A stretch of 64,000 bases of DNA from Takakia lepidozioides (lineage: Eukaryota > Plantae > Bryophyta): the NCBI GenBank assembly GCA_030704615.1, contig CM060731.1, positions 4,030,001 through 4,094,000 on the forward strand, in the 5' to 3' direction. Each line of letters starts with the position of its first letter. Position 1 is the stretch's first letter. The position numbers and the translations under genes are program-made. A model generated the notes under the pieces. It saw only the letters and a program-made list of their open reading frames with translations. It was not told the origin of the DNA and did no database searches. Below, piece by piece: positions 24,466 to 45,800 of the stretch.

Positions 24466-26243
24466 CACTTGAAGAATCGTAAACATCAATGCATTTTTTT
24501 ATCCTAAACCATCATAAGAAAGCACAGGTTCCAGAATGCTTCTGGAGTGTGAAAGAGAAGGATAAGAAAATTGGTTCTTCTAATTTCAGTCCCAGTGAGG
24601 ATGGAAATGCTAGCTTTGGCAATACACGAGAAGGAGATACGATTGGCGCCTGAATTGAAGGGTCAATTGACGATACTTGAATTGTGTATTACACGAAAGC
24701 GAGGAGGGTGTATCGTGGTTGCACTTCAAAAGAAAGGGATATGGGGTATGAAGGAGTCCCCCATCAGAAGGGTACATCAGGCTAAAGCCCGGGCGGATCG
24801 AGCGGCGATGAGAGCAGCTCGTCGAGCGCTGATAGCCGCCCAGCTGGCTAAGCGGGGAGACCACTCCATCATTTTTACCCAGCGGACCCCGCCGCGGCGG
24901 TGGGCCGCGGGTTATGCTGTTACCCGCGGGGTACCGCGCCAAGGACCGCTGGTCCTTGGCCATGGACTTTTGAGGGTGGCGCGGCGCGGATATACGTATC
25001 ATACATACGTGCCATGTAAGCAAATACATACCTGACTGGCATATATGACTAGCATAGTGGTTATGACCGATGTCCAAGATGACATGGCCTTTACATCAGC
25101 ACTAACTTGCAGTCACAAATGGCAGATCTCACGGCCAAACAATCATAAAAGCTAGTCATAAAAGCCGCAAACTGTTGTTGTGCCATGTGGTCTATCAAAC
25201 TACTAGGGTATGTTGGACTATCACGCGATAGAGACCCATGACTGTCCACAATGATAATATGCCACATGTGGTATGGGCAGATTTATATGTATCTATGACC
25301 ACACATCGACAGTTGCCAATGCTTTGAACGGTTATAAGCATGTTCCATCTAGTATGACACTATACCTTTTTAAGATGAAGAATGTTTATATAAAAGTAGA
25401 ATGTTGAAACTTATGCTCTTAAATGCTCTAAATATTGTGCCACAAAAATTAAACATGGGTATTACTAGAGGTATGGGTACTACTAGAGGTAGCCGGAAGG
25501 TGAAGTGGCCATTACTTACGCCGGCTTTGGCCGCAATCTTCTCCTTCTATTTAGGTACTAGAGAGATCCAATGACATCCTCAAGCTAGACTTGAAGAAAA
25601 AGTTGATATGGAAGCTTGAATAATAAAAGCTTTGATCATTATCCTAAAGAGAGAGAGAGAGACTCCGGCCATAACCAGCGTAACTCCGGGCCACTTCACC
25701 AGCTTTATGCTACTGTCCCTTTTCGGGAGTGGGCCATATAACACCATCTTATACATGTAGGAGACGGATAAGCTCCAATTTGGAGCGATGCAAAGAGGAA
25801 AAGGCCATCTCGGCTGGTGTAACAAAGAGTCACTTTACCTTAAATCAGTTACTGCCCTCTTTAAGGGAGCAATGCATCAATGTTGGGTGCCGTTGGGTGG
25901 TTATTTCCATTGCTAAAAAATATAAGCAACATCTGTTACTCTTAACAACATCGATCATCTAAGGACTTCAAAACTTTGGTCAACATTTGTGTCCCATTCG
26001 CAGATTTTTGTCAACACTTGTTTGAACTATTAATGCATTGCAATACCAATGGTTGTATCTACCATGTTCTATATAGTAAAATCAACTAGTGTGTATCGAA
26101 AACATATGGTGGAAATGACATCTTGGTCTCTATATCGGTTCTACGTCAATTTCATGTATTAAACTAGATTGGGCGCTCCCCCAAATAACTACTTTTGTTG
26201 CGCACCTCTCTTTCGTAAACTCTCATTCAAATCATAGCTACTC

Positions 26244-26330
26244 TGTCGTGCACCTAAGCATCGTGCCACAACATACATCGCTGTCCACCATACATTCTAA
26301 GCACACAATCCTAGAAAGCTATGCCACAAT
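26244..26330. repeat. Terminal repeat Y, outer copy (87 bp)
   Basis: Matches 26698-26784 with 2 substitutions. Confidence 0.95.
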
Positions 26331-26695
26331 GATAATGAAAGTGAACACAAGGGAAACACTTCACTCATGAATCCACTCAATCACATAAACTAAGTCAAGC
26401 CAAGGGCACCCTTGCTAAGGGAATCCACCCTACAAAGCCCTCAACACACTCCCTCTCAATACCTAGAGCTATGGAGGTGAGAGAGGCTCATGGAGGCTCA
26501 ACTACAAGAAGATGAGCCCTCCTCAACGCTCACAAGGAGAAAACCCATCCCCATGTCCCAAGTGAGGTTTGACACCTCACTTGGTATGTGAGACCAAATG
26601 AAGTCCCAACACACAAAATGCAAATATAAATATCCAAAATGTCCTAGTTAACTAGAAGTAGGTAATTCTAGTTAACCATGACTAAAACCATGACA
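26330..26695. repeat. Terminal repeat X, inner copy (366 bp)
   Basis: Matches 42495-42860 with 8 substitutions by manual alignment and no indels. Confidence 0.95.
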
Positions 26696-26697
26696 AC

Positions 26698-26784
26698 TGT
26701 CGTGCACCTAAGCATCGTGCCACAACATACATCGCTGTCCACCATACATTCTAAGCACACAATCCTAGAAAGTTATGCCGCAAT
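26698..26784. repeat. Terminal repeat Y, inner copy (87 bp)
   Basis: Direct repeat of 26244-26330, separated from X by the dinucleotide AC (26696-26697). Confidence 0.95.
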
Positions 26785-27037
26785 CGCCCACCTAGCTGGT
26801 GATTAGGTCCCTCTACCGGATAGCTGACAAGTATCCATCTCAATAAGATCATCGTTTGGTCTTCAATCGCACATGTCCCAATTTTTTAAAGTATATGAAT
26901 CAAGAGGTCAGGTGCAACGAGAGCCCCATCGTTGATCGCCTACTTGCAATCCATGATCTTCAATTGAGTATCCATAGCGTTGAGCTCCTACAAGCTAGAC
27001 CTTGGATCACTTGTCAACTCCACCATTGTCATGCCCA

Positions 27038-28429
27038 CTACATATGTCCAAGGCATCGTGGACACAACCATTCTCCACTAGGAACCTCCTCAAGTGGCGG
27101 TGTCAAGCATCCCATGTGCCACCCGCTTGGGCATTTGTCACACACCAGCATGGTTACGGCACCACCAGCATGCCCACATAGCATGCAACGCAACCCTGCA
27201 GGTACCACTGCAAGGTTGGGATCTATCATCCCATCCACATGTGGAAGGTGACATGGCGTACAATTGCGCACATGGTCCTTCCATACCATGCCATCTCGAC
27301 CCTCCAGAATCAACACTCCTGAAGGCAACACCTCCCGGACCCTTAGAATCACATGCCCTGCTGTGACATCCAAAGTCGTAGGCGCTGTCTGCTGCAGATA
27401 CACATAGTCCCCAGGGTGGAAACGCCGAACACCTGGCCGATATCCCCCTCCACGTACAGTGACATACCTCAATGTGTCTCGGTGTTGGGCAATAGCAAGG
27501 TTCTCAAAAGCCATAGGCATGACTCTCTTGAACAACTCTGCCCGCTGGGCACATGCTTGTGTCCACACATCCGGATCATCAAGGTTGAGGACTATTGCAG
27601 TCTCCCTGCGAATAGATGCAGACAAATGTGGATCTCGGCGAAAGAGAAGGAAATAAGGTGAGAATGAGGCAAGTGAAGCTTGTTTGCTGAACTTATAGCC
27701 CATAGCTAGCCAAGGCAGCTGAAGGTCCCAATCTCCTAGGTGTCCCTTCTGCAAACCGTACTTGCGCAAATCTCTCTTGACTGTCTGAACAACTCTCTCC
27801 GCCAAGCCATCAGCCTCGGGATGATCCCGAGAAGTAGTGCGGTGATCTATCAAGGCTTGCTCATACAAAGCCTGAAACTCCCCCAAGAATTCTCTCCCCT
27901 GGTCCGTGAGTACCTTGGCTGGAGCACCAAAATGGCTAAGCACTCGATCTAAGAATGCATACACAGCCCCTTCACTTGCCTTGTCAGGCAATGCCACCAG
28001 TTCAATCCATTTGGAGAAGTGTTCCACCATCACCAGCACATACTTGTTATGGCGAATCATCAGTAGCAATGGGCCTGCGAAGTCAAGACTCCAACGATAG
28101 CCCAAACCCATAATGGGTAAATGATGCAATTGTGGAGTAGGGGCGTTGAAAGAAGCCTGCACTCTATCACACACCATGCACCTTGCCACTAACTGTTGCA
28201 CATCCGTGTGCATGCCCCGCCACCAATACTGCCCTTGCAGCAAACTATGAGTGCGCCGCACCCCAAAATGTCCCAACTCCTCATGGGCATGGCGTATCAA
28301 TCGCGCTCGTTGTGTTGGATGAGGGACAATTCTCACTCGTCCATCCTCCCATACCCGGAGTAGGTGAGTCCCTTCCCACTTGAACCTCTTGGCTTGTTGT
28401 AGGATCCGATCTCTTTCCTTAGCAGTCAC
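27038..28429 (-). CDS. Retrotransposon DDE integrase with C-terminal PHD finger
   Basis: HHCC zinc motif (HAHEELGH...CMVC) and catalytic SLDFAGP / LTDQGREF / ADGLAERV. C4HC3 PHD finger CMLC..CDKC..WHMGC..WLCPRC at 27053-27187. Confidence 0.95.
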   Translation of the reverse strand: MTAKERDRILQQAKRFKWEGTHLLRVWEDGRVRIVPHPTQRARLIRHAHEELGHFGVRRTHSLLQGQYWWRGMHTDVQQLVARCMVCDRVQASFNAPTPQLHHLPIMGLGYRWSLDFAGPLLLMIRHNKYVLVMVEHFSKWIELVALPDKASEGAVYAFLDRVLSHFGAPAKVLTDQGREFLGEFQALYEQALIDHRTTSRDHPEADGLAERVVQTVKRDLRKYGLQKGHLGDWDLQLPWLAMGYKFSKQASLASFSPYFLLFRRDPHLSASIRRETAIVLNLDDPDVWTQACAQRAELFKRVMPMAFENLAIAQHRDTLRYVTVRGGGYRPGVRRFHPGDYVYLQQTAPTTLDVTAGHVILRVREVLPSGVLILEGRDGMVWKDHVRNCTPCHLPHVDGMIDPNLAVVPAGLRCMLCGHAGGAVTMLVCDKCPSGWHMGCLTPPLEEVPSGEWLCPRCLGHM

Positions 28430-28504
28430 ACTGGCTGCTGTCTCTCATGTACGAAGGTAGGCCAACACTGCTGCATCTTCATGCACATCCTTAGCACCAC
28501 TAAG

Positions 28505-29929
28505 CTACTCACTGATATCTGGATCGTCATGCACACCATCTACTTGACCAATGCTATGGGATGGACCAGCTTGAGCTCCCATTGCTAGGATGCACAAAAA
28601 GACAGATGCATGCCATCCTGGCACCATCTCCTCATCTGTCTCACCATGCCACCGAGCTCCAGTATCATCATGCTTGCTCGTGCATGGATTACGACTCAAT
28701 CCATCTGCATCCCGATTGACAATACCGGCTCGATGCACCACCTGGAAGTCGTACTCTTGAAGCATAAGTGCCCATCGTGCAAGCTTCCTTGTAAGCTTGT
28801 CTGACTCCATCAACCACTTCAATGGTTGGTGATCCATGACAAGGGTGAAGAGATTGTTGTAGAGGTAGCATCTGAAATGTGCAACTGCCCATACCGTAGC
28901 TAGACATTCCCCTTCATATGAACTATACTTTGTCTCGGCATCATTGTTCGAGCGGCTAGCATATGTCACTACGAACTCTCTTCCCTCATCATCCACCTGT
29001 GTGAGCACTGCTCCAATCCCCAGTATACTCCAATCCGTATGTAGCTGGAATGGCCGCCCCCGAATAGGCCGCCTCAGAATAGGTGCAGAAGTCAATCCAG
29101 CCTTGAATTCCTCAAAGGCTTCCTCCTGTTCCTCCTCCCACTGCCACTCCTGACCCACCTTGGTCAACTTGGTAAGAGCCTTTGCAATGGTGCTAAATCC
29201 CTTGACAAACCGTCGATAGTAGTTTGCCAACCCCATGAAAGCATGAACTCTGCTAACATCTACGGGGCGTGGAATGCGTGCAATGGCCTCCACCTTCATC
29301 TTTTGAACACCCAATTCTCCAGGGTATATCATGTGGCCCAAATACTCAATCTGGTTGTGGAAGAACTTGCACTTCCCAGGGTGCAATTTCAACATGTGCG
29401 CTCTCAAGCGCTCAAACACCACCTGAAGGTGTCTCTCATGCTCCTCAACCGTAGCACTAAAGACGATGATGTCATCAATGTAGCACCAGGCGAAGTCTAG
29501 CCCCGCAAGAATCCTATCCATGACCCTCTGAAACTCTGTAAGAGCATTCTTCAGGCCAAACGGTAAGAACCGCAATTGGTACAAGCAATCCTTCCCATGA
29601 TGATCAATCCCCCAGAATGCCGTCTTTTGCTTGTCAGCCTCTTTGATTGGCAACTGGTGGTAACCGGATCGCAAGTCCAATGTGCTAAACACCTTTGCAT
29701 GCCCAATGGCATCAAAGATCTCCTCTGGAGTTGGCATGGCATATCTATCGGACTTAGTCTGACGGTTCACATGACGATAGTCCCCACACATCCTTCTTTC
29801 TGTCCAATTGCCATAGATATCCTTCTTAGCTGGCATCACCGTTGCCGAGGCATACTCCCCGCCTGACAACTCCACCAATCCAGCTTCGAGCAACTCCATA
29901 GTCTGTGACTGGATCAATGACCTCTCCAT
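28505..29929 (-). CDS. Ty3/Gypsy-type reverse transcriptase and RNase H
   Basis: RT motifs RMCGDYR, FSTLDLRSGYHQ, LPFGLKNA, YIDD and YLGH. RNase H motifs LHTDWS, EGECLA, DHQPL and ADGLSR. Separated from neighbouring domains by disrupting lesions. Confidence 0.96.
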   Translation of the reverse strand: MERSLIQSQTMELLEAGLVELSGGEYASATVMPAKKDIYGNWTERRMCGDYRHVNRQTKSDRYAMPTPEEIFDAIGHAKVFSTLDLRSGYHQLPIKEADKQKTAFWGIDHHGKDCLYQLRFLPFGLKNALTEFQRVMDRILAGLDFAWCYIDDIIVFSATVEEHERHLQVVFERLRAHMLKLHPGKCKFFHNQIEYLGHMIYPGELGVQKMKVEAIARIPRPVDVSRVHAFMGLANYYRRFVKGFSTIAKALTKLTKVGQEWQWEEEQEEAFEEFKAGLTSAPILRRPIRGRPFQLHTDWSILGIGAVLTQVDDEGREFVVTYASRSNNDAETKYSSYEGECLATVWAVAHFRCYLYNNLFTLVMDHQPLKWLMESDKLTRKLARWALMLQEYDFQVVHRAGIVNRDADGLSRNPCTSKHDDTGARWHGETDEEMVPGWHASVFLCILAMGAQAGPSHSIGQVDGVHDDPDISE

Positions 29930-30532
29930 GTCACTATACCGGTAGGGCCTTCAAAAGATTGGCGTATCACTTGCCAAATCAATACAAATCTCCTGACCCT
30001 TCAAACTCCCAAAATCCTTCAAACCGAAGGCAAAGCAATTTCTATAAGCCCTTAGAAATCGCTGGATCCTCCGTCTCTCCTCTCCGGTGAATGTAGGTCC
30101 AACATCTGGTTCCCAATTGTCCTCAGTGACTGCAACCTTAGGTACACCACGCTTGGAGGTAGGAGATGAATCCTTTGGTTGCTAGATAGCAACCTCTTGG
30201 GCCTTGTCCGCCCAATCTGACTATGGCGTAGCCTCCACTTGCTCCACCATAGCCACCTTGAGAACTTCCTCTGAGCAAGAAACATTCTCAACCTCTTCAA
30301 AAACCTTAGTCACCTTGGCCTCCAACTGATCCTCAGTGTATGGCTCTCCCCACTCCTCATACTGCTGCTTGAGAGATCTAATGACTCTCTCTTTGCGCAT
30401 CTCATCCCACATCTGCCATGGGTGTTTGCACCCCATGATCTTGTGCTTGCCCCCACTCACTGCCTCCACTGTCCCGGTTGGCAGAGATGATGCAATATCT
30501 AATGGAAGTGCAGAAGTAGCCACCAATGCTTG

Positions 30533-31497
30533 CAATCTTCGTTGTTCAGCCATGCACAAGCCAATGACCCATGTCAAGCAATTGAGATCCATTGCTTGAC
30601 CCAACACCTGGCGTCGTGATGCCTCTGACAGAGCTGGCACAGCTGTAGTGCCCGTGGCAAACCCCATTGCCCGCTCGCACTCATCCGCATTGGGCTCCAC
30701 CAATTGCTGTAGCACACTGTCCCAAATCAACCCAGGACCATTGTCTCGAAAAGCATGAGATGAGGGAAAGCTCATGAACGTAGGCAAGGTTGTACGTGGC
30801 TGCCCCACTCGATTGACCACTACTAGAGGTGGATGGTCATCATGTCGCACCCTCTGTGGTTGCCTCCCTTAGTCCAAAATGCCCTCAACCGTGAGATTGG
30901 GTGGCCGTTGAATGGAATCATATGCTCTCTTGAGCGGCTCTGGTGGTGCAAGATTGCTCCACCACAATCGAGGTCGATGCGTGCGTGATCCCACCGCTGC
31001 TGCATCCAATAGCATCGCCGATCCAATCCAAGACCGCACCTGATGCACACTGGCCATAACCCTGGCCCGAGAGTCCCCCATAAGATGAACATTCTCCAAG
31101 ATATAGGCTAAAGGTGCTTTGTCTGCAACTCACGCAACACTCTCAACATCTCCCAAAATAAATGCGATCGTGCATCATGGAAGCCATTCCCATGACTTGC
31201 GGGAGAGTGTCCCTGGCAAGGCCATCCAGCTATCACCAAGTCAATGGCACCATGCCGGTCCAAATCATCTGCCCCCAGCATGGTAATGTCTGCTGGCAAG
31301 GCCTTTTGGTACCCTTGAATTGCTGAGAGAGGCAGCAACTCAGGGTACTGGTGTGTGAGCAAGGCAACGTGGCGCATAGAAATACGCCGAGCTATCTCAT
31401 CCTTCTCCTCATACAAGTATTTTTATACTTTAATCCCAGCTTGCAACACTCCTGCAAGCCCAGTGCTCATGCCTCCAAACAGGTCTAGCAAACAAAT
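30533..31497 (-). pseudogene. C5 cytosine DNA methyltransferase domain (DNMT3-like) inside the retrotransposon pol, disrupted
   Basis: Motif I LLDLFGGMSTG, motif IV DLVIAGWPCQG (PC at 31221-31216), motif VI YILENV, motif VIII HRPRLWWSNL, motif IX ECERAMGF.TGTT and motif X RRQVLGQAM, all in canonical order. Stops at 31423 and 30869, and one frameshift near 31110. Confidence 0.93.
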
Positions 31498-31879
31498 CCC
31501 TGAGTCAGGTGGTTGCCAGGTAATGGGCACTGTGTCCAAAAGAGCTAACTGAGGAGGTCCAAGTGATGTCACTAAACTCCCCTCACTCACCAATGGAAAT
31601 GCCTCTTGCCATGCTTGGTGCACACACTCGCATGCTATTCGATGCAAATTCCCAACTGTACCCCACAGTGGAATATGAACAGGCACATGAGGAAGCAAAT
31701 CAGCCTTGTATACCAATTGTTTGTCCTTATCAGGTGGTGGCCTATCATCTGCATGGCTATTGCCTTCCAAGAGCTCACCACCCCAAGCCACCACCCCTGA
31801 GAATGCAGCCAATGTGGGCATCATGTTCCTATGATCCACCGCTATATTCCCAATAAACCGCACTGGGAGCAGTGCACGT

Positions 31880-32215
31880 CGACCATCCCCTGACTGCCAT
31901 TCCGGCATATAGGATGTCGTTTCCTCCCAAAAGTCCAAAGTAAAGCCCATCGGGTATAACACAGCCCCACCAACAAGCACATCATAAGACATCGCGTCCG
32001 TAACAATGGCTTTAGCTCTCATGACTGAGCCATCCGTAGGATGATCCGGCTGCAATCGAATGAAGAGCTCATGGCGTGTAATCCCTCGTGCCTTCTCTGA
32101 ACCGCCCAAGGATATTGAATTTGGAAAGGGCAAGGCTCCAAATCCGCCTCTGTAAGGCCCAAGCCTGCAATTGCTGCTCTTCCCAAAATCAATGGCTGTG
32201 CTCCTGACTTGCAGA
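31880..32215 (-). pseudogene. Degenerate retroviral-like aspartic protease
   Basis: SGAQPLILGRAAIAGL near 32165-32207, where the catalytic D of D-S-G is apparently lost by a deletion. SYDVLVGGAVL matches the C-terminal D-x-L-x-G protease motif. Confidence 0.7.
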
Positions 32216-32825
32216 GGCCTATACCTCTTCACGGCTGGGCCACCCAACTGAAACACACCATCCTGATTGTCCTTCCAGCTAGTGGTAAGAGAATGTCATG
32301 GATTGACTCCCGACACTGGCAATGCGAATTAGAGCAGCAAACGCAACCCACAAGTGAGCATCTGGTCTGAGACTTCAAACCGTTGCCGATGCTTGACTTG
32401 GTAACAACTATCTGCACCTTGTTTTGCAGCACCACCCACTGGCATATCCTGAGCCACACCAACTCTCCCCACTGGCACTCGTGGCTCTACCTCTGACACA
32501 CTTGGGCGAGCGGGTACCATCGATGGCGTAGTTGGCACTGTCTCAGCCAATGTGAAAGACTATGGAAGTCTTGTCTGTCGACTTGCTTCCCCCCTTTGTG
32601 GATCAAAATCCACATCTGCTCCTCTTGGCTCAGGAGCACGCGTTGCTGCTCGAGTGACAGCAGCTGCAGAGTCCACATGCAATGGTCCTGCAAGCGCGGC
32701 TCCACACATGAAGCCCATACCAATCTGGTCTTCCCTAGGCATAGGAGGTTGTGCAGGTGGGGCTTGAACCTCAGGCCTTGGAGCTGGTGCAACATGAGTA
32801 GTGGCCATGGTAGCAAGACGTTGCT

Positions 32826-34146
32826 CTAGCTGGGCAAGCCTATGTCATGACCTTGACCGTGACCCTGTGCTCCTTGGTTTTGGTTACGCCCTCCACCACG
32901 ACCTCTGTCTCCTCTACCTCTCTGGACTACATTGCCTCGTCCTCGGCCACAATTGTTCCTTTGGAACTGGCCTGGCTGTAGCTCAGGATGCAAGTCATAA
33001 CGATGGGTCTCTTCATGCCCATACTTGCCACAATGCCTACACTCTAGTTGTGTAGGCTGTGCCTGTGCCGGCCCTTTGCCTCTCTCCGGGAAATCTCTCT
33101 TAAGATGGGGTCCTCCACAATCCCAACATGTCACTCCCGACTGTTGTTGGCCTGAGAATGAAGGAAGTGACCTCTGCAATTGAGATCATCTCTGTCCTTC
33201 CCTGGCTTCGCCTGAGCCCCTTTGTTGCCTTGATCACGTTGGGGTAGTGGTTGTTGTTGGCTAGGAGCCCCACTTCGTTGTGTCTCCTTACCAAACCCCA
33301 CCATGACCACTCGCTCCTCCACCATATTGAGCTCTATCCGCTCTGCCAGCAAAAACACGTTTGCTAAGGTGGGTTGGGCCACTTGTAGGAGAGTTGCATC
33401 CCACACCCTTCTCCTCAACTCCTTGTCCAAAATCCCATACCAGAATTGGACTGCTTGAGCTTCCGTAACCCCTTGGGTTACATTTATCAATCGCCTCATG
33501 CGCGTGTAAGCCTCCCTTAAACTCTCGGCAGGCTTTCGTCGGAACTCTTGCAAGCTCTGCAATTTCTCCGTCCTTATCCCCTGGTAATTTCTCCTTAACT
33601 CCTCGAAGAACTCCACAACTGGGTTAAAGGCAGGCACGGGTGTTGGTGCTGCAGCAAGAGCTTGGGTGGACTTCCCAGCTCCTGTTCCACTTGACGTCCC
33701 ACTGCTGCTTGCAGAAGCTGCCGGTGTAGCTGCCGGTGTTACCACTGCCCTTGTGCCTCTAGTGATGGAGACATAGTCAGGTGACCAATATACCCGCCAT
33801 TCCTCAATCTCCACCTCATGTCCCCGCCTAAACTCATGGTAGTCATCCATAGGCGGCCCCTCAAGGTGCTGAAACAGCCCCTTCCATGCCATAAAAGGCG
33901 TAAACAGTTGTGGATTGCGCATCTACTGCAAATCACACCAACTATCAAACTCCTGTATGAAATCATCAAGCACGATGGTGCCCACAGCTCCAGAGTACCG
34001 ACGTGGCCTCTTGGTAGCTCCATACGTTTCCTCCATCGTATCCCACAACAATGGCACGGAAATGGCTTGCACCCTCGGCGAGAATCCTCTTAACTTTGAG
34101 TCTGAACCTTCCTCAGAAGACACTGAAGGTGAAGGTGGCCTAAACC
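32826..34146 (-). pseudogene. Retrotransposon gag with two degenerate zinc knuckles
   Basis: LDDFIQEFDSWCD, EKLQSLQEFRRKPAESLREAYTRMRRL (retrotransposon gag core), and knuckles CWDCGGPHLKRD and CRHCGKYGHEETH. The frame continues for about 30 codons on the far side of the nested insertion (40037-40125). Confidence 0.85.
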
Positions 34147-35074
34147 CCTGGGGGGTGCACTCCTCATTAAATGTACCAGGCACGTGTGTGCACAGGAGGG
34201 AGTATTTTAAACCCCCCCATGTACAACATTATATATATAGAGGAGGGTTTGAAACACCTTAAATATAATTTTACAGGAGGGAGTTGTTGAGTTTTAAGGG
34301 GTAGTGTAGTGGTAAGAGCAACGTTTAGGCCGCGACTCACTGCGAGATCAAATTGCGGGATCTTCTTTTTGTTTTTTTTTTTTTTTTTTTCCTATCCGCG
34401 ATCTTTCTCCCCTTCCCTCCCGCGGCTTTCTCTTTTCCCTCTCCTCCTCTCCCGCGATCGCCTTCCCTTCCGCGGGCTTTCTCTTTTCCCTCCTCTCCTC
34501 TCCCCTCCTCTCCACAGGGCATGGTATTCTTCCTGATGTTTACAAGGTTTAGGGGAGAGTGAGCTTGGTCTTAGCATGCCATTTTGTGGTGGTTTCTCAA
34601 AGACCAATCCGACATTATCTGACTACAGACACCAGCAGCACACCGAAGCGATCCTTTTGGGTTGATGGGAGGGCAAATCCTCCATGGGTCATGACACAAG
34701 GTCAAGGACAATGTGGTGAGGGCACCTTCTTCTTCGACCTATTTCAGCCTGTCTTGCCCTCTCATCAGAGTCGGCCCTGAAGTTGCAGCACTGAGCAGAC
34801 CTGGCATGAGTTTTTAGAAGATTGACAATGGTGGGACAACTGCAATCGCAAGGTGTGGCGTTTTCTTAAGGTAAGAATTTTTTCCATCCTGCTATTGCAG
34901 GCTCTTGCCTCCTGTTAGTACCTGATTTGGTATTCTTCCAGATGTTTACAAGGTTCTTGGGAGAGTCAGCTTGGTCTTAGCAGGCCGTGCTCAGCTGCAA
35001 CGTGGTGGTTCTCACTGACCAATCCGTCGTTACCTGACTACAACACAAGTAGGCACACACAAGAGATCCTCTTT

Positions 35075-36510
35075 TGATCTCAGTCCAAACCAGGAAGTGG
35101 TCAGAGGTACCAATATCAGTTCTGTCGATCAACACATTGGCACACTGGGGGAACAAATTTTTGTCCATTATGATATAGTCCACAATGGAACGTTCCCCAG
35201 TTTGGGATTTCTCACGAGTCCACTGCACTTGGTCACCTGCAGTTGAAGTCCTTGCCCTTGGTTGTCTTCCTAGAGCGCCCCATTGAATCACCAATGACTA
35301 AGACCGCTTTCCAGCCAGTCAAGGGATGAACTTCTTTGAGATTGAATTGATGTGGGACTCTATTAGAAGCACTTTTGGTCATTGCAACCTTCAACGTACA
35401 CATGTTATCAATGAGAGAACCCCGGACAGTGTATCAGAAAATGAGTACTGTCTTCAGATTGCCCACACAATGGGAAGTGCACTCTCCCTTTCCTCTCTGC
35501 TTCTGTTTGCTGTTCAAAGGTAGGCTTCCTGCCCTGAGTTTAAATTTCAGTCTAGTGCCGAGAGTGGGTGGACCCTTGAGGTCATCCAAGATGTCCTCCC
35601 CCATGTCACTGACTGGAAACAAGTTCAGGGAAGTTTTCTGCCTAACTTCATTTTCATCAGACAATCTCATGGCAACAGACATGGCTTTGGACACTACAGC
35701 CTCTAAGTTGGATTTATCCAACAGGGTCAAGACTTGCGGATCCAGGTCCAGGTCCTTGAGAATCTCTTCTACTCTGGTGTTGGGAAAACACCTTTGGATC
35801 TCAGTCCAAACCAGGAAGTGGTCAGAGGTACCAATATCAGTTCTGTCGATCAACAGATTGGCACACTGGGGGAACAAATTTTTGTCCATTCTGATATAGT
35901 CCACAATGGAACGTTCCCCAGTTTGGGATTTCTCACGAGTCCAGTGCACTTGGTCACCTCTTGTCCTGTTATTCAAGGTCAAAAGCTGAAGCTTTTCCAG
36001 ACAGTTAATTAACCGTCTGCCATTAGAATTCAGCTCGTCCTCACCAGAAGGCCCAATGATATCATCCTGATGGAGCCCTTTGCCCACCCGGGCTTTTGTC
36101 TGCGTCAGCACTAAGGGTCCCCTCTGTGGGCATGTAAGCACAACCCACAAAGAGGTCCTTCGTACTCATGCCGCCCTTCAGATTCAGTTTAGCCAGATAC
36201 TATGCTCGTACCTCAAACCCTTGTTGATAATTTCACAATTGTCAAACAAGAAATCACAGACAAAGAATCCAACCCCTTTTTGACCGCATTTGGCAGAGGC
36301 GCCTTGAGAGTACACATCTTACCTGCCCATTTATAATCATTGACATCTCCAACCAGTTTATCCGACGTTTCCCATGTTTCTTTCCCAACACAGATATGAA
36401 TATCATTAGTCCGAAGAACTTGTCCCACTTTGAGTTGTTTCCTTTGGTTGGTCAACCCTGAGAAGTTGAAAGTGGCCAGCTGCAATCCAGCCCTGTGCAT
36501 GTGAATTGTT
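35075..36510 (-). pseudogene. LINE ORF2 fragments: AP-like endonuclease and C-terminal Cys region, RT missing
   Basis: LATFNFSGL, ICVGKETWE, NSNGRRLINC..LLTLNNR, SIVDYI and GTSDHFLVWTEI (APE motifs, the last segment duplicated), followed by GTRLKFKLRAG...CTSHC. Confidence 0.75.
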
Positions 36511-36949
36511 TGTCGTCTAGGTAGCTTGTGATTGCTCCTATACGGCCAACCGTTCTGCAAAGGGGGGACAGTTACCCCATGGATTCAACCTCATCCAGAG
36601 CATCAAACCGATTAGAAACTCTCAAGTTGAAGTCCTTGCCCTTGGTTGTCTTCCTAGAATGCCACATTGAATCACAAATGTCTAAGACCACTCTCCAGCC
36701 AGTCAAGGGACGAACTTCTTTGAGATTGAATTGATGTGGGACTCAATTAGAAGCACTTTTGGTCATTGCAACCTTCAACGTACCCCTGTTATCAAGTCTC
36801 GAGATGGAACCATTAGCCATGAAATCCAAGCCTAAGCTAGAGCATGTAGTTTTAAAGATATAGAGTCGATGTTTCCAAGATATAGAGTCGATTAACTTAG
36901 GATATCTGGTGTTGGACATATGTTGTAGCTGACCCCACCATCTGACCTT

Positions 36950-39320
36950 TGAATTCATTTGTGTGCGTTTGCAGTGCGTGTGCAAGCCTGCAGCCATGGA
37001 AAAGGGCAAAGAGGTGCATGGTTGCATCACCAAAGCTGGAATTGTACCGGATGTGATTATGAACAATACTTTTGTGGACATGTATGCCATTGTGGGAGCA
37101 TTGAGGATGCGGAGGGAGTGTTCAACACTATGGCTGAATGAGGTGGTGTCGAGGAACACGATTCATCCAAGAGGTCGATTTAAGACACAAGATTACTTCT
37201 GATTCCCTGCGGATCAATAGCTACAAGAAAACTGCGTGGGTAGATGGTCAACTGGAAACAGCAGCGGCAACAGTGCATTTGGTAGGACAAGGCGCTGCTA
37301 ATGAAGGTACCTTCTTCAACACATTTCAGCCTGTTTTTCCCTGTTATCAGAGTTTTTCCCTGTTTTTTCCTGAATGAGCATGGATAGAGTGTGGGTCCAG
37401 ATTCATCCAAGAGGGCTGGACTTCAAGCTCCAGATTACCTTGATTCCATGTGGGGGTCAGTAGCTACAAGAAACCTGCATGGGTAGATGGTCAACTAAAG
37501 GCAGCAGCTGCAGCGGCACAGTTGATAAAATCAGGCACCTCAACCATGACCAGAGCTTCTGAAAGAGGATCAAGAGAGGGAGTCCACAATGCCTCTTCTG
37601 GCACTTCTGGGCATGTGAAGATACTTTGTGCGACAGCCTAACAGAGGCTCTACAGACTCTAAACCAAGCAGGCAGTTCAGCAGATTCAGATATGTATGTC
37701 TGTCTCTTGCTTAAGTGCATCAAGATGGAAGGTCTCAAAGCTGGAAAGCAGGTGCACACTCACATTATCCAAAGTGGATTCACGCCAAATGTTTTTCTAC
37801 TCAACACCCTTGTCAACCTGTATGTTAAGTGCCGGAACATCAGGGATGCTCACCAAGTGTTCAACAAAATGCCTCAATGATCTTTGATCACGTGGAATAT
37901 TATGTTGAAAGGATTTACCAAGCATAGGTGTGGTAGGAATGTTTTGGAGACATATGAGCAAATGATGTGCGAAGCGGTGAAGCCCAACCACATCACATTT
38001 GTTTGTGTTTGCAATGCGTGTGAAAGCCTGGGAGCAAGCTGGAATTGTACCAGATGTCATCTTGAACACTGCCCTTGTGGACATGTTTGCCAAATGTGGG
38101 TGCGTTAAGGATGTGAGGGGAGTTTTCAACACTCTGGCTGAACGAGATGTTGTGTCGTGGAACGTGATGCTTGCAGGGTATGCACAACAAGGGCACGGGA
38201 TGGAGGCTTTGGAGACCTATGAGCAAATGATGGGGGAAGGGGTGAAGCCTAACCAAATCACAAGGCATTTCACCAGATTCAGATATGTATGTCTGTCTCT
38301 TGCTTAAGTGCATCAAGATGGAAGGTTTGGAAGCTGGAAAACAGGTGCATACTCACATCATCCAAAGTGGATTCACATCAAATGTTTTTCTACTCAACAC
38401 CCTTGTCAACATGTATGTTATGTGCGGGAGCATCATTGATGCTCACCAAGTGTTCAACAGAATGCCTCAACGATCTTTGATCACGTGGAATATAATGTTG
38501 GCAGGATGCAATGCGTGTCCAAGCCTGCGAGCTCTGGAAAAGGGAAAAGAGGTCCATGGTGACATCGTCAAAGCTGGAATTGTACCAGATGTCATTCTGA
38601 ACACTCCCCTGGTGGACATGTATGCCAAATGTGGGTGCATTAAGGATGCGAAGGGAGTTTCCATGGCTGAACGAGATGTGGCGTCGTGGAGTGCGATGCT
38701 TGCAGGGTATGCACAACAGGGACGTGGTATGGAGGCTTTGGAGACCTATGATCAAATGATGGGGGAAGGGGTGAAGCCCGACCACATCACGTTTGTGTAC
38801 ATTTGCAATGCGTGTGCAAGCCTGTCAGCTCTGGAAAAAGGAAAAGAGGTCCATGGCGACATTGTTAGATTTGCAATTGTATCAAATGTCATTCTGAACA
38901 ATACCCTCGTGGACATGTATGAAGGGAGTGTTCGACGGTATGGCTGAACGAGATGTGCTATCGTGGAATGCGATGATTGCAAGATATACACATCAAGGGC
39001 GCGGGATGGAGGTTTGGAGACCTATGAGCAAATGATGTGCGAAGGGTTGAAGCCCGCGCTTTGCATTGCATGATGTTGAGGAAGAGCTTAAAGAATCGTC
39101 TCTTTGCCACCACAATGAGAAGCTGGCCATTGTTTTTGGGCTTATCAACACACCCTCTGGGATGTCTTTGGGGATCATCAGGAATCTTCGGATGTGTGGT
39201 GATTGCCACACAGCCACCAAATTCATCTCAAAGATAGCTAAGCAAGAGATTGTTGTACGGGATGCAAACCGCTTTCACCACTTCCAAAATGGTGTTTGTT
39301 CTTGTGGGGAGTATTGGTGA
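36950..39320 (+). pseudogene. Scrambled DYW-PPR pseudogene captured in the Pack element
   Basis: Multiple frameshifted L/S/P motif fragments ([41 protein letters not shown]) fused directly to a truncated DYW domain [20 protein letters not shown]...CGDCH...CSCGEYW (39066-39320). The P2-L2-S2-E region is deleted. Confidence 0.92.
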
Positions 39321-40899
39321 AATGAAATGCTTGTCACCTAATTGAATGTATTGAACTCTGTCAGCTGCGAGTCAGGTTGGACTCCTACAGTGGCAGCAAA
39401 GGCGCACGAAATCTCTTTTTGGAGAGGAATTCTCAACAATAGGTTTTGAACATAATTGGACCTTGCGAAGGTTGAAACTATAGACCAAGTTCAGAAACTG
39501 TCCTAGTTGATGAACAGAGGTGCAATGACTAGGTTTTGATGGTCTTCAAGAGGGTCACTCTCTGATGAAAATACCCAGGACTGTATATCAGAAAATGGAA
39601 ACTTTCTTCAGGCCTCTTGCACATCGGGCATTGACAATGTCCCTTTCCTCTCTGCATCAAATTATTGTGCATCTGATTATTGTTCAAAGTGAGATTCCAC
39701 AACAAGTTTTATCGAGGGCAAACAATTTTTTTAAATTAATTTATTAGATTTTGTTCTATTTTTAAATGAATAAACTTGATATAATATAAAAACATACATA
39801 TACATATTTGAGGGTATTTTTAATTATTGAAAAGGGAAATATACATACAGTAGGGGGTACTTTTTTAAAATTACAAATTTCTATATATTTACAGGAGGGG
39901 GTTTTATAATCTTCAAAATGTATGTACAGAGGGGGTATAAATGATCCAAGGACCCGTATACATGGGGTTTTTTAATTAGGCGGCGAACGCACGTGATACG
40001 GACATTTTATAAAGAGTGCACCCCCAGGCCTAAACCGCACACCTCGTCTTGTATACCCACTAGTATCGCTGGAGCTCGTACCGGCACTCTCCTCAGCAAC
40101 TGGTGGCACCTCCGTGTTGAAAACTCACAACCACACATGTCGTAAACCTGTCTCTAATCCCCCTTTCCACAAGATAACCGGGTAGAGAACCTGTTGCGGC
40201 TTATGGCTTAGACTACTAGGTTCGTAACATAAACCTGCACCTGCATCCACCGCAAGCACTCCTATGGTCTGCTGGTCATCAACCCAGCCTTACCATAAGA
40301 GAAACAATGATGGTCTGATTGGTCATCACCCCAGCTTCACCACCGACAGCACGCTCTAGGATTGACCGGTGATCAGATCCGGACCAACCTCCTATGAAAA
40401 CAAGCGCCCACACAAAGCTAACATGGCGCACAGTCAAGCATGCAGGTGTGGAGGGGATCCAAACACAAGAAAATCAAGACAACAACTCCCCCACACCAAG
40501 AACACTCCACAGTGTCGCTCCTGCAATGACACCCTAGCCCAAACCCGAACTGACTCTTGCCTCCACCTACGGAAAAGTTTTGGCCTACAGAGAGGGTGAA
40601 AGACTACAAGGAAGAGAGACTAAAGCAATTCCTAATCCCAGCATGCCTTCATCCCACTACCCTATCTCCACACTCTCTTGCTTGAACAATAGACAAGACT
40701 ACCTTTCAAGGGTCTCTCAAATAACTCTCCAGGAGCCCTCAAGAATATGTTTCTCAAACAATCTTACTAAGGCTCCCAATCCTTGCACAATGGGACTCCA
40801 AAACAGTACACCATGGCCCCAAGAGCCTGCCAAAACTTAGCCCTCGAGGACCCCAAATAGTCCCTCACACAAGTCGCCAAAGACTCCTCAAGCTTGCCA

Positions 40900-41045
40900 A
40901 ATATTGGCCTCCAAGGACCCCAAACGGTCCTCCAAAGAATTCCAAATGGTCCTCTAAATGGTCCTCTAAATGGTCCTCCAAACAGTCCTCCAAGGACTCC
41001 CAATGGTCCTCCAAGGACCCCAAACAGTCCTCCAAGGACTCTTCC
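40900..41045. repeat. Degenerate 11-12 bp tandem array (GGTCCTCTAAAT / GTCCTCCAAGGA) in the retrotransposon 5' leader
   Basis: Directly visible tandem units, followed by TATTCCC and GCCATTTCCCCC repeats to about 41270. Confidence 0.85.
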
Positions 41046-42494
41046 TATATCACCATGTTCCCAATGCGTTCCCAAAGTTCCTTAGGAATATTCTTGAGAA
41101 TATTCCATAGTATTCTCCCAGTATTCCCCTGGGCCTATACGTATTCCCCTTGTATTCCCGCCATTTCCCCTTGGTATTCCCATTGGAATAGCCATTTCCC
41201 CCTCATAGAGTAGTTCATTCCTCCAGGGTTTAGCCATTTCCCCCTAGGCTTTAGCCACTTCCCCCTCTATTTCCTTGAGGTTTAGCCCTACCAAGCTAGG
41301 GTTTGTGCTCCTTGGGGCTCTATGCTTAATCCCCTCAAGCATCCATGAATTCTATGGGGTACCAAGGCAAATTCCTTTGATCTTCTTCACCTTAAGCTAC
41401 TCAAGTTTGTCTCCAACTCAACAACTCAATATCAAGCTTGTAACTCCTTTGGCAAGCCACCAAGCCTTGTCTCCTCTCAAGCCTTGGTCATTCAAGCTCC
41501 ATTCACTTGCTAGCTCAAGAGCCACTTCTCTCCAGCTTGAAATTGCAAAGCTCAAGCCAAAAGCCTGCTCCACACATGCATCACCTCATACACAAGGGAA
41601 TCGACTTGCTTCCTTTACTTTCTAGCTATCCTCAAGCTTGAAATTGGAAGCCACACTTGGGAAGCATGCTCCACATAAACATCACTTGCTTGATCAACCA
41701 TCCACCACAAAACTTAAGCCAAAAGGGAATGAATACATGAGCTTCACCTTCACCTTCCCCTTCCTTTTGTTGTCACATGCTAGTCTATGGTTGAAGTTGC
41801 TATGCATGCCTTGAGCCACAATCTCTTTTCTTCATGAAGACCACCTCCAATGATCTCCTACATGTGCTCCAAGCTCTTCAATGCTCTAGGCTTGGTTTCA
41901 CATCATCATGGATAGAATTTTCACCCATATGCTTCCCTTCAAACCTCTTGAGCTTCCTAATGCTCTCCAAGTGCTTGCCCTTGTTGTCTTCAAGCCCAAG
42001 CCTATGTAGCTCCTTGGCTTCTCTTCGACAACATCCACACTTGAGCTTGCTTAACCCTAGATTGATAGTGAAATGAGTACTAACAATCATTTAGTTGCTC
42101 TCCACAAGCCATGGCACACACCATTGACTCCATAATGCATTGACAAGATTATCAAACCCTAGAATCCATGCTTCCACACACACAAGACTTCCCTCTTGCA
42201 ATCTTTGCAAATCTTGTGGCAACAAGTTCTTTCTTGAGCTCTTCAACACCTTGGTGTAACACCACAAGTAACTTTCCTTGCAACCCTTGTGATCTACAAG
42301 AGCTCCATCTTTGAGCTCTCCACCTCCTTAGGGCAAAGCAATATCTCTCAAAGCCCTAACACCAAAAGGATTTTTCTTTGCAATATATGCAACACCTTGC
42401 AACACAAGAACTATCTTCCCAAGCTCTTCAACACACAAGTGCTAAACTAACCCTTACACTCTGCACTCACAAGCATAAGGTGATCTTCTTGTAG

Positions 42495-42860
42495 TGATAA
42501 TGAAAGTGAACACAAGGGAAACACTCCACTCATGAATCCACTCAATTATATAAACTAAGTCAAGCCAAGGGCACCCTTGCTAAGGGAATCCACCCTACAA
42601 AGCCCTCAACACACTCCCTCTCAATACCTAGAGCTATGGAGGTGAGAGAGGCTCATGGAGGCTCAACTACAAGAAGATGAGCCCTCCTCAACGCTCACAA
42701 AGAGAAAACCCATCCCCATGTCCCAAGTGAGGTTTGACACCTCACTTGGTATGTGAGACCAAATGAAGTCCCAACACACAAGATACAAATATAAATATCC
42801 AAAATGTTCTAGTTAACTAGAAGTAGATAATTCTAGTTAACCATGACTAAAACCATGACA
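42495..42860. repeat. Terminal repeat X, outer copy (5' end of the retroelement)
   Basis: About 98% identical to 26330-26695, ending CATGACA followed by ACTC. Confidence 0.95.
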
Positions 42861-45800
42861 ACTCACTAGTACGCAAGCCTAACTCCCCAACTGGCGACAT
42901 CGCTATAGCTTTAGGAAAGGGAAACCTAAAGCTCAATTATCCTTTGATCAGCTAAACTCAAGTGCAATAGCTAAATTGATTTAGCTACCTATTTTTTCTC
43001 CTCTGCTACTTTATCTTTTTGAACTCTTGATTACGGGCAATGTCCATTTTGTTAGCCTTTATGGCTCCTTACAAGGTTATTTTTTCCTTGTGCTCAATTA
43101 AAACTCAACGTCAAACATTAAACATCACATAAAAATAATAAGTTGGCAAGGGTTGTGGATGACTGGAAATACTCAACACCTATTTTGGACCCCTCTCCTC
43201 TTAATTGATGTACATGTACAAATTTTCTTCAAATTTTTATTTTATTTTATTCATATTTAGTAAAGCATATCTCGAGTCCACCTTGCAATGAACTTTGAAT
43301 GGATGAAATTTGCTGAGCACTTCATCTGATATGGATGAAAACATCCTTAAGTGTATGATATTTAGGGTTGGATTTCGATTATACATATACACATATATCT
43401 ATCTTAATGCTTTGTTCTGTTGGTTTCATCCATTTAGTTAACGGTCGGCTAGGCCCAAAACGGGCTCGGCAACTACTCAATCCATCAACGGTCTTCAGAT
43501 TTGGATGGTTTCACAAGATTTTTAAGACATTGATGCCCTTGTCATGTGGGACCACTTAGCACATAGTTGATTGGATCAGGAGCTGCATGGGAGAAGCTAA
43601 TGTGGAGCCAACGAAGAGGAGGAAACCTTGCAAATGCTCCATCTCTGGGGAGCTCTTTTCCTCTGTGCAACATGAGAAAGTGAGTGGTCCAAGTGGAACC
43701 ATGCCTTGACTAATCACCTAATCTTGCAGATTTATCCAGATGGCCCCATTCAGCGGCTATGAATGCTTCATGTGGCAACATAGACTCTCAAATTTTGGGC
43801 TAAAAGGATTTCATCCCCTAATTCAGAAGTAATTAAAACTAGAAATTAACATCTATCATGTAGTGAAATTGCAAATCTTCACTTCCAACGGTGGAGATTT
43901 TTCAGATCTTGATCGATTGTCTTGCAAATTTGTGAGCAGACCGCTATCGCTCTAACTATCATTACTCCCCAAACTGGAGAATGGTTCAATGCACCAGCTT
44001 TGCTACCTAGGCTCCATTTGGGGGGCTTTCTTGCTCTTTCTTGCTGTGGGCCCGGATGGTCGTTACCAACTTTTCCTATCGAAGTTTGGCCGAGTGTCGA
44101 ATGCAAACCTTTAAGACACCGGAACCTTTAAGACTGCGCGGAGAGAGTACCTAAACTCTAAGGATATCCATCTACCTTCATCCCTCTTTGTGGCCATTCA
44201 TTTGTGGGGTCTTCATGGTTTATTTTACTTAGTTATTTCTTATAACCCCCCTTGTCTATTTGCCATGCTTAATATGATGGTGTTTTGGGGTGGTTGTTTT
44301 TGGACCTTTGATAGGAGTTTTTTGTTTTTGTTTCTAAGCTGTCATTTCAAGCCTACCTTTGTTACTTGAAGTGCCTGCGGCCAGCAGCCTCTATACTGAG
44401 GGAGGAAAGATCACACTTTTAGAGTGCAGGCTTGCAGGGTTTGAAAGGTAGAGGATGACCTTTCCAACCAACACCTAGCATATCCTGATGTAGCATGGGG
44501 CGGTCATGTCTTTCCTGGACATATTTTCTGGATTTTATAGGTATTTTTCATGTCAGGGGTATCCTTTTTCAAAAAAGTCTGCAAAAAGCACTGGGCATTT
44601 AAGGGTTAAAGGCAGGTAGGTGTTGAGGCACCAATTTCTCGGCGCACATACTTGGGCTTAGTATCTGTGCAGCTAGGCAACAACTTGCCAAAAGGATTTG
44701 GTGCTTGCCTCAGCGCCACTAGAGCTGGACTGTTAAAGACTGTAAATGCAGTCTTTTGTAATCTTCAAATGTTTCTGGTCTCCAGTGATACAAGCCCATC
44801 TAATTAACAAACGACTCCTTTACAACTGAAATTATAACACAATTCTGAGTGTCCTGCTCGAAATCTCAAAGCTACACATGCCATCCCTGAGCAGCGGATA
44901 ATAGTGCTCATGGCCACAGTAATATTGTTGACTTCACTTCAAACAGAAAGTCTTGTATTATGATCAGGTACTCAAATACCATCAGCTCCATGGCGGAAGG
45001 ATGCCTGGTTGGTAACAAAAAGACATTCTCCCGAAAACAATTTAACCTTAGAAAACCACTAATGTATAAGCCCTGTATACTAGCGACCTAGAGAGAGTCC
45101 ACTTCCATTGCCACCAACCTGGGTTTATGGCTATGGTCATTCCTGATGACAAACACAACATTGAGAATACCAAATCTCCACGTGTACTACATAACCAACA
45201 TAAAAGAACCTCCGGCCCACTGCTCATCTATGTGTAGTGGACTCCTAGAGACTTGGAAAGTTGTCTACGTGGGCTCACCCCTGCAGAGCAAACGGTGTAA
45301 CAACACAAAAAAAATAAGAGAAGCAACAGAGCTGAGTCCAAGCTGAGCCCAAGCTGAGCTAGTTGAGAGAAGGCCCAAATGTAACGTAGAAAATGGACTG
45401 CCTTATTTCAAGACAACAATGGAAGGTTGTTGGAGGTCACAAGGCACATCCAGCTTCTGCTTTGCACTTGCAGTCAACAGCCAGGTGGGCATCAAAGCAA
45501 AGGATAGAACCTGAATGCTTGGCCAATATAAGGATGACAGTTTTCACAAAAATCCTCCAGACATGCAAACACTCTGTAGGAATAAACAACCTTACCGAAT
45601 CTCCTACTGAAAAGAGTTCTGGTTGCCACCTCAAATATGTTGTAGAGAGAAACGGTCACGTTTGCTGGTGCAAAGACCCCTCTGATATGTAAACAAAGAG
45701 CTTGAAGAGATCCTCTGATGCGTGTCACTCCATGCCAAGCGCTGTCATCATCAGCTGGGCCGCATAACGTAGCACGGTCCCATCATCAGTCATCATCCAA

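Follow-up and report, generated by a model that had tools for sequence, protein, structure and literature searches.

Why should a DNA cytosine methyltransferase lie between the protease (PR) and the reverse transcriptase (RT) of a plant retrotransposon, and what would it do there? The question is raised by a 64,000-nucleotide stretch of the Takakia lepidozioides (Bryophyta) genome (contig CM060731.1, positions 4,030,001 to 4,094,000), which is called the window below and whose numbering is used for all coordinates. An earlier note, made from the sequence alone, had described a DNMT3-like C5-methyltransferase (DNMT) in this position. Here, the locus is identified as a dead copy of a Ty3/Gypsy-PHD retrotransposon, and its family is a land-plant branch of the published KnitGypsy-Dnmt3 type (PMC5890265). 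The overall explanation, an old green-lineage element that methylates itself, relies on readthrough and integrates from a circle, is given a little better than an even chance as a whole.

The element in the window

The element spans 26244-42860 on the minus strand, which carries all of the parts described below, and has the layout A-coding-B-A-B (A and B being repeats) with a 4-bp target duplication. Its coding order is gag (two zinc knuckles), PR, DNMT, RT, RNase H (RH), integrase (INT) and PHD finger. The RT is of the Ty3 type, and with the RT/RNase H of a relative (L075) as the query, the best solved relative is Ty3 Gag-Pol (E 3e-98). Gag (32500..34138; PF03732, E 5.5e-4) has its knuckles at 33105-33128 and 33015-33041, contains several frameshifts and stops and aligns at 57-63% to Marchantia proteins. 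This is followed by the aspartic protease region (31900..32290), whose N-terminal part is frameshifted and which aligns at 49% to the Marchantia protein P0004; an Asp_protease_2 match is present in ORF1 of L075. On the far side of the DNMT, ORF2 starts with RT and RNase H (28508..30181; PF00078, E 1.7e-29; PF17917, E 6e-34) and continues into a DDE integrase with an H2C2 zinc finger and rve core (27221..28444; PF17921, E 2.6e-17; PF00665, E 4.3e-13), the C-terminus of which bears the PHD finger (27041..27220; PF00628, E 2.7e-10). The closest solved relatives of the latter are the PHD fingers of CHD4, PHF12 and KDM5A/B. ORF2 in the window has private stops at 29951-29953, 28505-28507 and 28445-28447. 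A chromodomain was not found in the integrase by the domain scan, the PHD finger being in its place, and the ORFs scanned gave no match to a tyrosine recombinase, the rve/H2C2 integrase being present instead. Summed contig depth is about 1e5 over the DNMT versus about 60 on single-copy contigs, a figure that suggests many copies and is not itself a copy number.

The start of gag is split by an unrelated, nested insertion of 5.9 kb (34147..40028), bounded by the 8-bp duplication CCTAAACC at 34139-34146 and 40029-40036, and this is the reason for the unusual length of the element. The 5' gag piece beyond it (40037..40160) reads ...SGYTRRGVRF and is similar by eye to P0043; across the insertion, the gag reading resumes with RPPSPSVSS at 34138. 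The insertion has 15-bp matching inverted ends, imperfect further in, with an alignment score of 128 compared to a shuffle maximum of 117. Inside it are a PPR-DYW gene, broken and on the plus strand (36900-39320), and LINE-endonuclease-like pieces; the insertion is highly repeated in read runs and is taken by us to be Pack-MULE- or hAT-like. The 8 kb between gag and A1 was also considered as cargo of the element itself, which was ruled out as this is a nested insertion with its own duplication.

Of the host genes around the element, two are PPR-DYW editing factors at 1269-3101 and 53414-55684 with a 303-bp repeat spacing, the second of which is unbroken and encodes 756 aa. PPR-DYW genes mark the host as a land plant, and the DNMT tree suggests that it is probably a non-seed one. 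Other host genes are a PRP3 splicing factor gene (46372-51077) and a large plus-strand gene (56629-63419), presumably BEACH-like, the first exon of which has no Pfam match.

The methyltransferase domain

The DNMT comprises 30530..31500, as defined by motifs, PF00145, homolog alignment and profile. All six of the motifs listed in the earlier note are found, in the canonical, unpermuted order: I (LLDLFGG, 31471-31491), IV (AGWPCQG, 31210-31230), VI (YILENV, 31088-31105), VIII (HRPRLWW, 30959-30979), IX (ERAMGF, 30659-30676) and X (QVLGQAMD, 30587-30610). As was also claimed, motif I shares its frame with the protease C-terminus and an intron is absent. The PF00145 check that had been suggested returns a match at 31111-31422 (E 1e-10, 42 bits versus a cut-off of 22 in the Pfam scan), which bears out a C5-methyltransferase between protease and RT. 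The C-terminal half alone has no Pfam match, and aligns at 58-72% to homologs.

The proposed likeness to DNMT3 holds as well. When a profile built from 12 homologs is compared to solved structures, DNMT3A comes first (E 2e-16), with DNMT3B at 8e-14 and DRM at 6e-10, and DNMT2 and the bacterial enzymes HhaI/HaeIII only at about 1e-5. Consistent with this ranking, the AlphaFold model of the unbroken L075 domain (pLDDT 96) best matches DNMT3A/B/C (E 1e-20, TM 0.70/0.80-0.84). The ESM Atlas gave nothing beyond generic C5-methyltransferase clusters for this domain.

The window domain is decayed: two stops (31423-31425, 30869-30871) and a frameshift near 31110 interrupt it, as the earlier note had counted. 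A further in-frame stop at 30182-30184 does not belong to the decay, as it is conserved in the family. At the stop positions 31423-31425, 30869-30871 and 30221-30223, another letter accounts for 88-100% of the read depth from other copies, so that these three stops are private to the window copy.

Distribution, selection and descent

DNMT homologs with 64-73% identity come, among the matches listed, from Marchantia, Calypogeia and Sphagnum (M. polymorpha, M. paleacea, C. fissa, S. troendelagicum and S. tenellum are named); the best matches listed include no host DNMT3 sequences. Of 333 candidates in a metagenome scan, 111 were confirmed, from which 80 loci were kept (numbered L); 81 loci collapse to 66 groups of near-identical sequences, most of them one family. 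Among metagenome loci with enough flanking room, 61 of 66 have PR upstream of the DNMT and 56 of 63 have RT downstream; none of the 80 has RNase H or RT upstream. The viral contigs yielded only one distant, phage-like DNMT (L081). One family member, P0321, is recorded as part of a bacterial MAG (Candidatus Obscuribacterales) and is probably plant or algal contamination. In L061, two further divergent DNMT-RT elements (200-4540, minus strand, and 17576-18719; 37-40% identity) lie beside the main family.

A profile search for the DNMT recovers 642 clusters at 50% identity (E up to 1e-30). In the best 150 of these 642, the DNMT follows RNase H or precedes integrase in 94, follows PR or precedes RT in 15, and is a DNMT-only piece in 41. 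Most matches are unnamed; where a name exists, the first kind comes from chlorophytes (Hariotina, Scenedesmus, Cymbomonas) and the second from streptophytes (Mesostigma, Klebsormidium, Closterium). The chlorophyte-type clade, with the DNMT between RNase H and integrase, consists of P0073, P0150, P0242 and 91 more of the best 150. Nested in this DNMT clade is P0085, a Copia-type protein with the same DNMT between a Gag knuckle and protease, which is likely a swap between superfamilies.

The DNMT tree was built by FastTree from DNMT-bearing elements only, excluding host DNMT3 and five short domains, and its root is distant. The window DNMT and the Marchantia-Calypogeia-Sphagnum group are sisters (support 1.0), and both sit inside a clade of stop-containing elements (0.98). 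The one K. nitens DNMT in the tree is not sister to the land-plant clade, the deep nodes being weak and the root distant. The same groups also emerge from the RT tree (0.999), and the two trees agree over 68 elements (Mantel rho 0.64, 0/999 permutations). To judge from sequence, DNMT position and tree pattern would fit one old capture followed by a later shift in position.

The selection check that had been proposed gives a DNMT dN/dS of 0.10-0.19 in eight between-family pairs, which is purifying, with PR being similar at 0.12-0.27. Among four pairs of close dead copies the DNMT value is 0.47-0.80, and these copies, together with the broken state of the window copy, are what would be expected had a fragment of a host DNMT3 been captured once and decayed neutrally since. 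That history deserves virtually no credence, and is already refuted by the same DNMT position in liverwort, moss, Klebsormidium, Mesostigma and Closterium elements, the low between-family dN/dS, the 642 clusters and the congruent DNMT and RT trees. The earlier note had allowed for other copies without the domain; instead, liverwort, moss and algal elements retain it in place. It is conserved across copies and families and belongs to the element.

A conserved stop between DNMT and RT

A single ORF running from PR through DNMT, RT, RH and INT to PHD had been anticipated, which is not what the family has. Instead, a conserved stop closes ORF1 after the DNMT, with RT-RH-INT-PHD then in frame. In the window the stop has the readthrough-type context TAG CAA CCA (30176..30184), which fits the CAR-YYA consensus (PMC2194720). 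A stop plus CAR is found at one spot in 54 of the 58 loci with an RT start (37 TAG and 17 TAA; 52 in frame), as well as in the window, 126-147 nt ahead of the RT anchor. The four misses are two deletions, one TAG TAG CCA and one frameshifted locus. The stop is kept across families just 49% identical in the DNMT, and its consensus, TAG-CAR-YYN, separates Gag-PR-DNMT (ORF1) from RT-RH-INT-PHD (ORF2). In unbroken L075, these ORFs are 1369 and 1047 aa, respectively, separated by one TAG, and full-length ORF1 proteins from Marchantia and others end at similar distances.

CAR-YYA is the TMV-type readthrough signal; in MuLV, readthrough occurs at about 5%, and Tca2 illustrates that such stops can be bypassed by another route (PMC2194720). 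UAG followed by CAR-YYA is exact in the window, L032, L075, L076 and L077, where no ATG comes after the stop; in the main metagenome family the stop is followed by CAA CCC, the last base being off consensus, and then ATG. A stem 3' of the stop is weakly predicted (z of +0.2 to -2.5). RT and integrase are thus likely to be made via stop-codon readthrough, as far as codon context can tell. Because the conserved readthrough-type stop lies after the DNMT, the enzyme would likely be made at capsid (Gag) levels, one per Gag. Closterium and several unnamed relatives have the DNMT fused to RT without a stop, and chlorophyte relatives have it within Pol, so a high DNMT dose is not needed everywhere.

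Ends, split repeats and the internal junction

Single-copy contigs break off at 26268 and start again at 42836, and the element termini are TGTCATG...CACGACA. These ends and the split repeats between them (26244-42860) were missed in the earlier note, and they say most about how the element works. The target-site duplication, ACTC, is at 26240..26243 on the left and is identical at 42861..42864 on the right, the fifth base not being shared. Repeat A1 (42495..42860, 366 bp), which starts with TGTCATG, forms the 5' end. The 3' end consists of B1 (26698..26783, 86 bp), A2 (26330..26695, 366 bp, TG...CA, 8 mismatches to A1) and, joined directly to A2, B2 (26244..26329, 86 bp, ending in CACGACA, 2 mismatches to B1); A1 and the B-A-B block were found by self-comparison. 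Between B1 and A2 is the internal junction CACGACA GT TGTCATG (26689..26704), in which the 3' end, a 2-bp spacer and the 5' end of the element follow one another. Two equal LTRs with a primer-binding site (PBS) and polypurine tract (PPT) directly inside are therefore absent: the 5' end has A only, the 3' end has B-A-B, and the PPT precedes B and not A. The element is a structural variant of a Ty3/Gypsy LTR retrotransposon and works like one.

The complete A-coding-B-A-B layout is present in the window, L035, L041, L061 and L069. Nine loci were compared for the 4-bp duplication, which is exact in the window, L041, L069, L033, L050 and L051 and matches at 3/4 positions in L035 and L028, the ninth being L061. 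The B/A junction of the window is shared with ten loci (L010, L012, L034, L035, L041, L047, L061, L069, L075 and L076), and the consensus over all of these, which include families 49% identical in the DNMT, is CACGACA-NN-TGTCAYG. Short A-coding-B forms also occur: of 18 loci with post-PPT B, 10 are short, 7 are full and 1 is at a contig end. These forms were considered as evidence for a one-LTR circle, which they fit, and dropped, as they could equally arise by B1xB2 recombination or by collapse in the assembly. A different PHD-Gypsy in L034 (14700-17324, 46-51% identity, 5' part absent) has the same B-A-B end, its junction reading CATGACA GT TGTCATG, and the split layout may thus be wider than the DNMT.

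Directly before B1 is a G-rich, PPT-like site (26784..26797) with a small hairpin ahead of it, which would serve as the plus-strand primer; the tract, AGCTAGG(G/T)GGGCGA-like, is conserved in the window, L075, L076, L041, L061 and L069. Directly after A1 is a candidate PBS (42483..42495), which is not of the tRNA type and is a 13-nt perfect complement of 42666-42678 within A1. The latter is the predicted self-primer, that is, the 5' end of the transcript, by analogy to Tf1/Tj1 (PMC4600332). The pairing was reached in 1/5000 shuffles. In the main metagenome family the sequence differs and the pairing is kept, with 13 of 24 rows having 14-19/20 matches; the primer site there is 146-160 nt inside A and about 30 nt behind TATAAA. 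In the other 11 rows the primer site is missing from its expected location, in two of them through a deletion, and L075/L076 have no usable A1. Repeat A in L035 and L041 has deletions centred on the primer site, and L051 contains an A fragment (13282-13570) that begins right after the predicted self-primer, like misplaced strong-stop DNA.

The A/B join at the 3' end unites the PBS-defined end and the PPT-defined start exactly. It is clean in six of eight cases (the window, L012, L035, L047, L061 and L069). In L041 the join still contains 3 nt of the PPT, along with a 17-nt insert, and in L051/L052, which are one rearranged locus, it retains 9 nt of the PBS; these remnants resemble ligated cDNA ends.

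Three CG sites in CGA context lie in the last 40 nt of B (26698-26740 in the window). They recur in L041, L061, L069, L075 and L076, that is, across divergent families despite general CpG loss, and are candidates for integrase contacts or DNMT targets.

Proposed replication and integration

Starting from ORF1 and the in-frame ORF2, readthrough of a few percent would supply RT and integrase, and the DNMT, one per Gag and cut out by PR, would be packaged in large excess. The RNA 5' end, which pairs with the PBS after A, would prime its own reverse transcription in the manner of Tf1. Plus-strand synthesis would begin at the PPT before B, and the linear cDNA would have B-NN-A at both ends. Joining of these ends would produce the A/B join seen at the 3' end of the element. 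The integrase may then cut after each CA of the near-palindromic CACGACA-NN-TGTCATG inside one LTR, leaving 2-nt 5' overhangs, and insertion with a 4-bp duplication would yield A-coding-B-A-B. Here, B reaches the right end only by end joining, and this is why a circle is inferred: the geometry would be that of a two-LTR circle opened inside one LTR. Integration from such a circle is favoured by a narrow measure. An overhang of this kind is the form of a processed retroviral end, and the two-LTR-circle route was disproved for retroviruses (PMC11054761).

The main rival to the circle route is a template model of the DIRS/PAT/Ngaro kind, with the same role for the DNMT. The transcript would run into B2, the internal B/A junction would be the template for restoring and joining the ends of single-stranded cDNA, the integrase would open the new junction, and the A/B join would be inherited. 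In its favour, the repeats are arranged as in DIRS-type elements (PMC5890265), and an internal template model exists for DIRS-1 (PMC7192593). In addition, inheritance through RNA predicts the six clean A/B joins out of eight equally well, which counts against the circle. However, such replication leaves unexplained why A ends exactly at the self-priming PBS and B starts exactly after the PPT, and why PBS or PPT remnants occur in L041 and L051/L052; the lack of a tyrosine recombinase and the 4-bp duplications, which fit a DDE integrase, also speak against it. A DIRS-like mechanism is therefore considered unlikely.

What the methyltransferase does

The position of the DNMT in the Gag-PR polyprotein points to packaging, with cDNA as the substrate, and the likely activity of the enzyme is methylation, in the particle, of CG sites in newly made cDNA of the element. 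Dnmt3 from Symbiodinium DIRS elements methylates CG in yeast, and the Klebsormidium DNMT gave no methylation there, a result termed inconclusive in the same paper (PMC5890265). The CpG observed/expected ratio of the element is 0.45, which is no lower than the 0.34-0.41 of host genes in the window, and CpG depletion is therefore uninformative. As to purpose, CG methylation maintained by MET1 takes part in transposon silencing in Marchantia (PMC10952607), and because of this, evasion of silencing is doubtful. Methylation of extrachromosomal DNA by the packaged enzyme, either for its protection or for delivery pre-marked as quiet heterochromatin, is more likely. The PHD fingers of CHD4, PHF12 and KDM5 read the histone H3 tail with unmethylated K4, and by analogy the PHD finger of the element likely guides targeting, steering integration by reading the H3 tail.

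The DNMT could instead act on host chromatin, methylating the neighbourhood of the insertion or sister copies, which would dampen the activity of its own family and make the element a self-limiting parasite. The large amounts of enzyme that an ORF1 position yields, the silencing effect of CG methylation on Marchantia transposons (PMC10952607) and the host-benefit reading discussed in PMC5890265 would all suit this role, which is nevertheless distinctly unlikely, since a part of the Gag polyprotein is placed for packaging and the chlorophyte position between RNase H and integrase is that of a cDNA-associated factor. More improbable still is a domain kept as a nucleic acid-binding or RNA-methylating module that does not act on DNA. 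Inactivity of the Klebsormidium domain in yeast (PMC5890265) and the change of PC to EC in motif IV of Closterium and Mesostigma proteins point that way, the latter affecting only the residue before the Cys. However, the catalytic Cys, the Glu of ENV and both motif-VIII Arg residues are at least 90% conserved over 41 diverse domains, the fold is that of DNMT3 and not DNMT2, and the related Symbiodinium enzymes methylate CG (PMC5890265).

Returning to methylation of the element's own cDNA, this may be combined with the circle route into one reading, held tentatively and at somewhat less than even confidence. An integrase-bearing clade found throughout the green lineage would prime itself, close its cDNA end to end as a two-LTR circle, and integrate by cutting a palindromic att junction hidden in the LTR. 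A co-packaged DNMT3, made at capsid level ahead of a leaky stop, would methylate the circle, and methylation of the conserved CGs at the att ends may choose which junction is opened. The capture of the DNMT would predate the chlorophyte-streptophyte split.

Novelty and implications

DNMT-bearing Gypsy elements as a kind are already known (PMC5890265), and PMC12344493 repeats the DNMT-retrotransposon finding for streptophytes and dinoflagellates. What is new here is the conserved stop that splits the polyprotein, and the split ends with a self-priming PBS, a PPT and an internal junction. The accessible text of PMC12344493, PMC11982613 and PMC9406493 has no account of land-plant members, the stop or the junction. 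More generally, the literature consulted contained no account of a land-plant DNMT-Gypsy, readthrough stop, self-priming or junction; parts of this may already be described in Repbase, in theses or subscription journals, or in the large PMC5890265 supplement.

DNMT-carrying Gypsy elements would thereby turn from an algal curiosity into an old, diverse lineage with members in the model plant Marchantia, in which a transposon's use of a silencing enzyme can be tested directly with methylation mutants and long-read sequencing. If the circle route is true, an integration pathway that was given up for retroviruses in the late 1980s would still be in use in these elements. There are also consequences for annotation: ORF1 products are annotated as Marchantia host genes (for example, Mp_4g09160) and may make DNMT counts too high, and LTR finders that require two equal LTRs miss the split repeats.

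Comparison with known systems

The nearest known system is KnitGypsy-Dnmt3 of Klebsormidium nitens (de Mendoza et al. 2018, PMC5890265), which shares with the window family a Ty3/Gypsy backbone, an intronless, unpermuted Dnmt3, purifying selection (Ka/Ks under 0.2) and a DIRS-like repeat layout, the last being noted in a figure legend without a mechanism. A relation to the Klebsormidium elements is supported. K. nitens GAQ93235.1 (P0251) has the same Gag-knuckle-PR-DNMT order, is 29% identical over 569 aa to Marchantia P0004 and, as known from the protein alone, ends 8 aa after the DNMT. KnitGypsy-Dnmt3 was described as an acquisition of the K. nitens lineage with the DNMT in the Pol ORF, and the text of PMC5890265 does not describe the target-site duplication, PBS, PPT or junction. 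In contrast, the window family is found in land plants, forms a well-supported separate subclade and has a DNMT that closes ORF1 at a conserved stop.

Several parts of the design occur elsewhere. MuLV, SIRE1, Tca2 and TMV have an in-frame stop between ORFs, with the TMV-type CAR-YYA context (PMC2194720); in the window family, by comparison, the stop follows an accessory enzyme, and PR and DNMT are on the abundant side. Tf1/Sushi elements and plant Tcn1 chromoviruses, a type that occurs in mosses and club-mosses, have a self-priming PBS complementary to the upstream LTR, as in the window, but possess two equal LTRs and a chromodomain in place of PHD, DNMT and split repeats (PMC6317226, PMC4600332). 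Gypsy-7a_cRei of Chlamydomonas reinhardtii has a PHD finger, and its left LTR stops 8 bp short of the end of the right LTR, these 8 bp possibly being a minimal B; compared by description only, it has no DNMT among its listed domains (PMC9940879). DIRS/PAT/Ngaro elements, including SymbioDIRS-Dnmt3, share A-coding-B-A-B, an internal two-end junction and methyltransferase cargo, and differ in using a tyrosine recombinase (PMC5890265, PMC7192593). The window element has a DDE integrase, TG...CA ends and a 4-bp duplication.

In IS3, IS21 and IS30, which are DNA transposons, a DDE enzyme opens the abutted ends of circle junctions with a 2-3 bp spacer. It is this opening of abutted ends by a DDE enzyme that the proposed route has in common with these elements and with the Panganiban-Temin two-LTR-circle model (PMC11054761 for the retroviral part), the retroviral circle junction having 4 spacer bases versus 2 in the window element.
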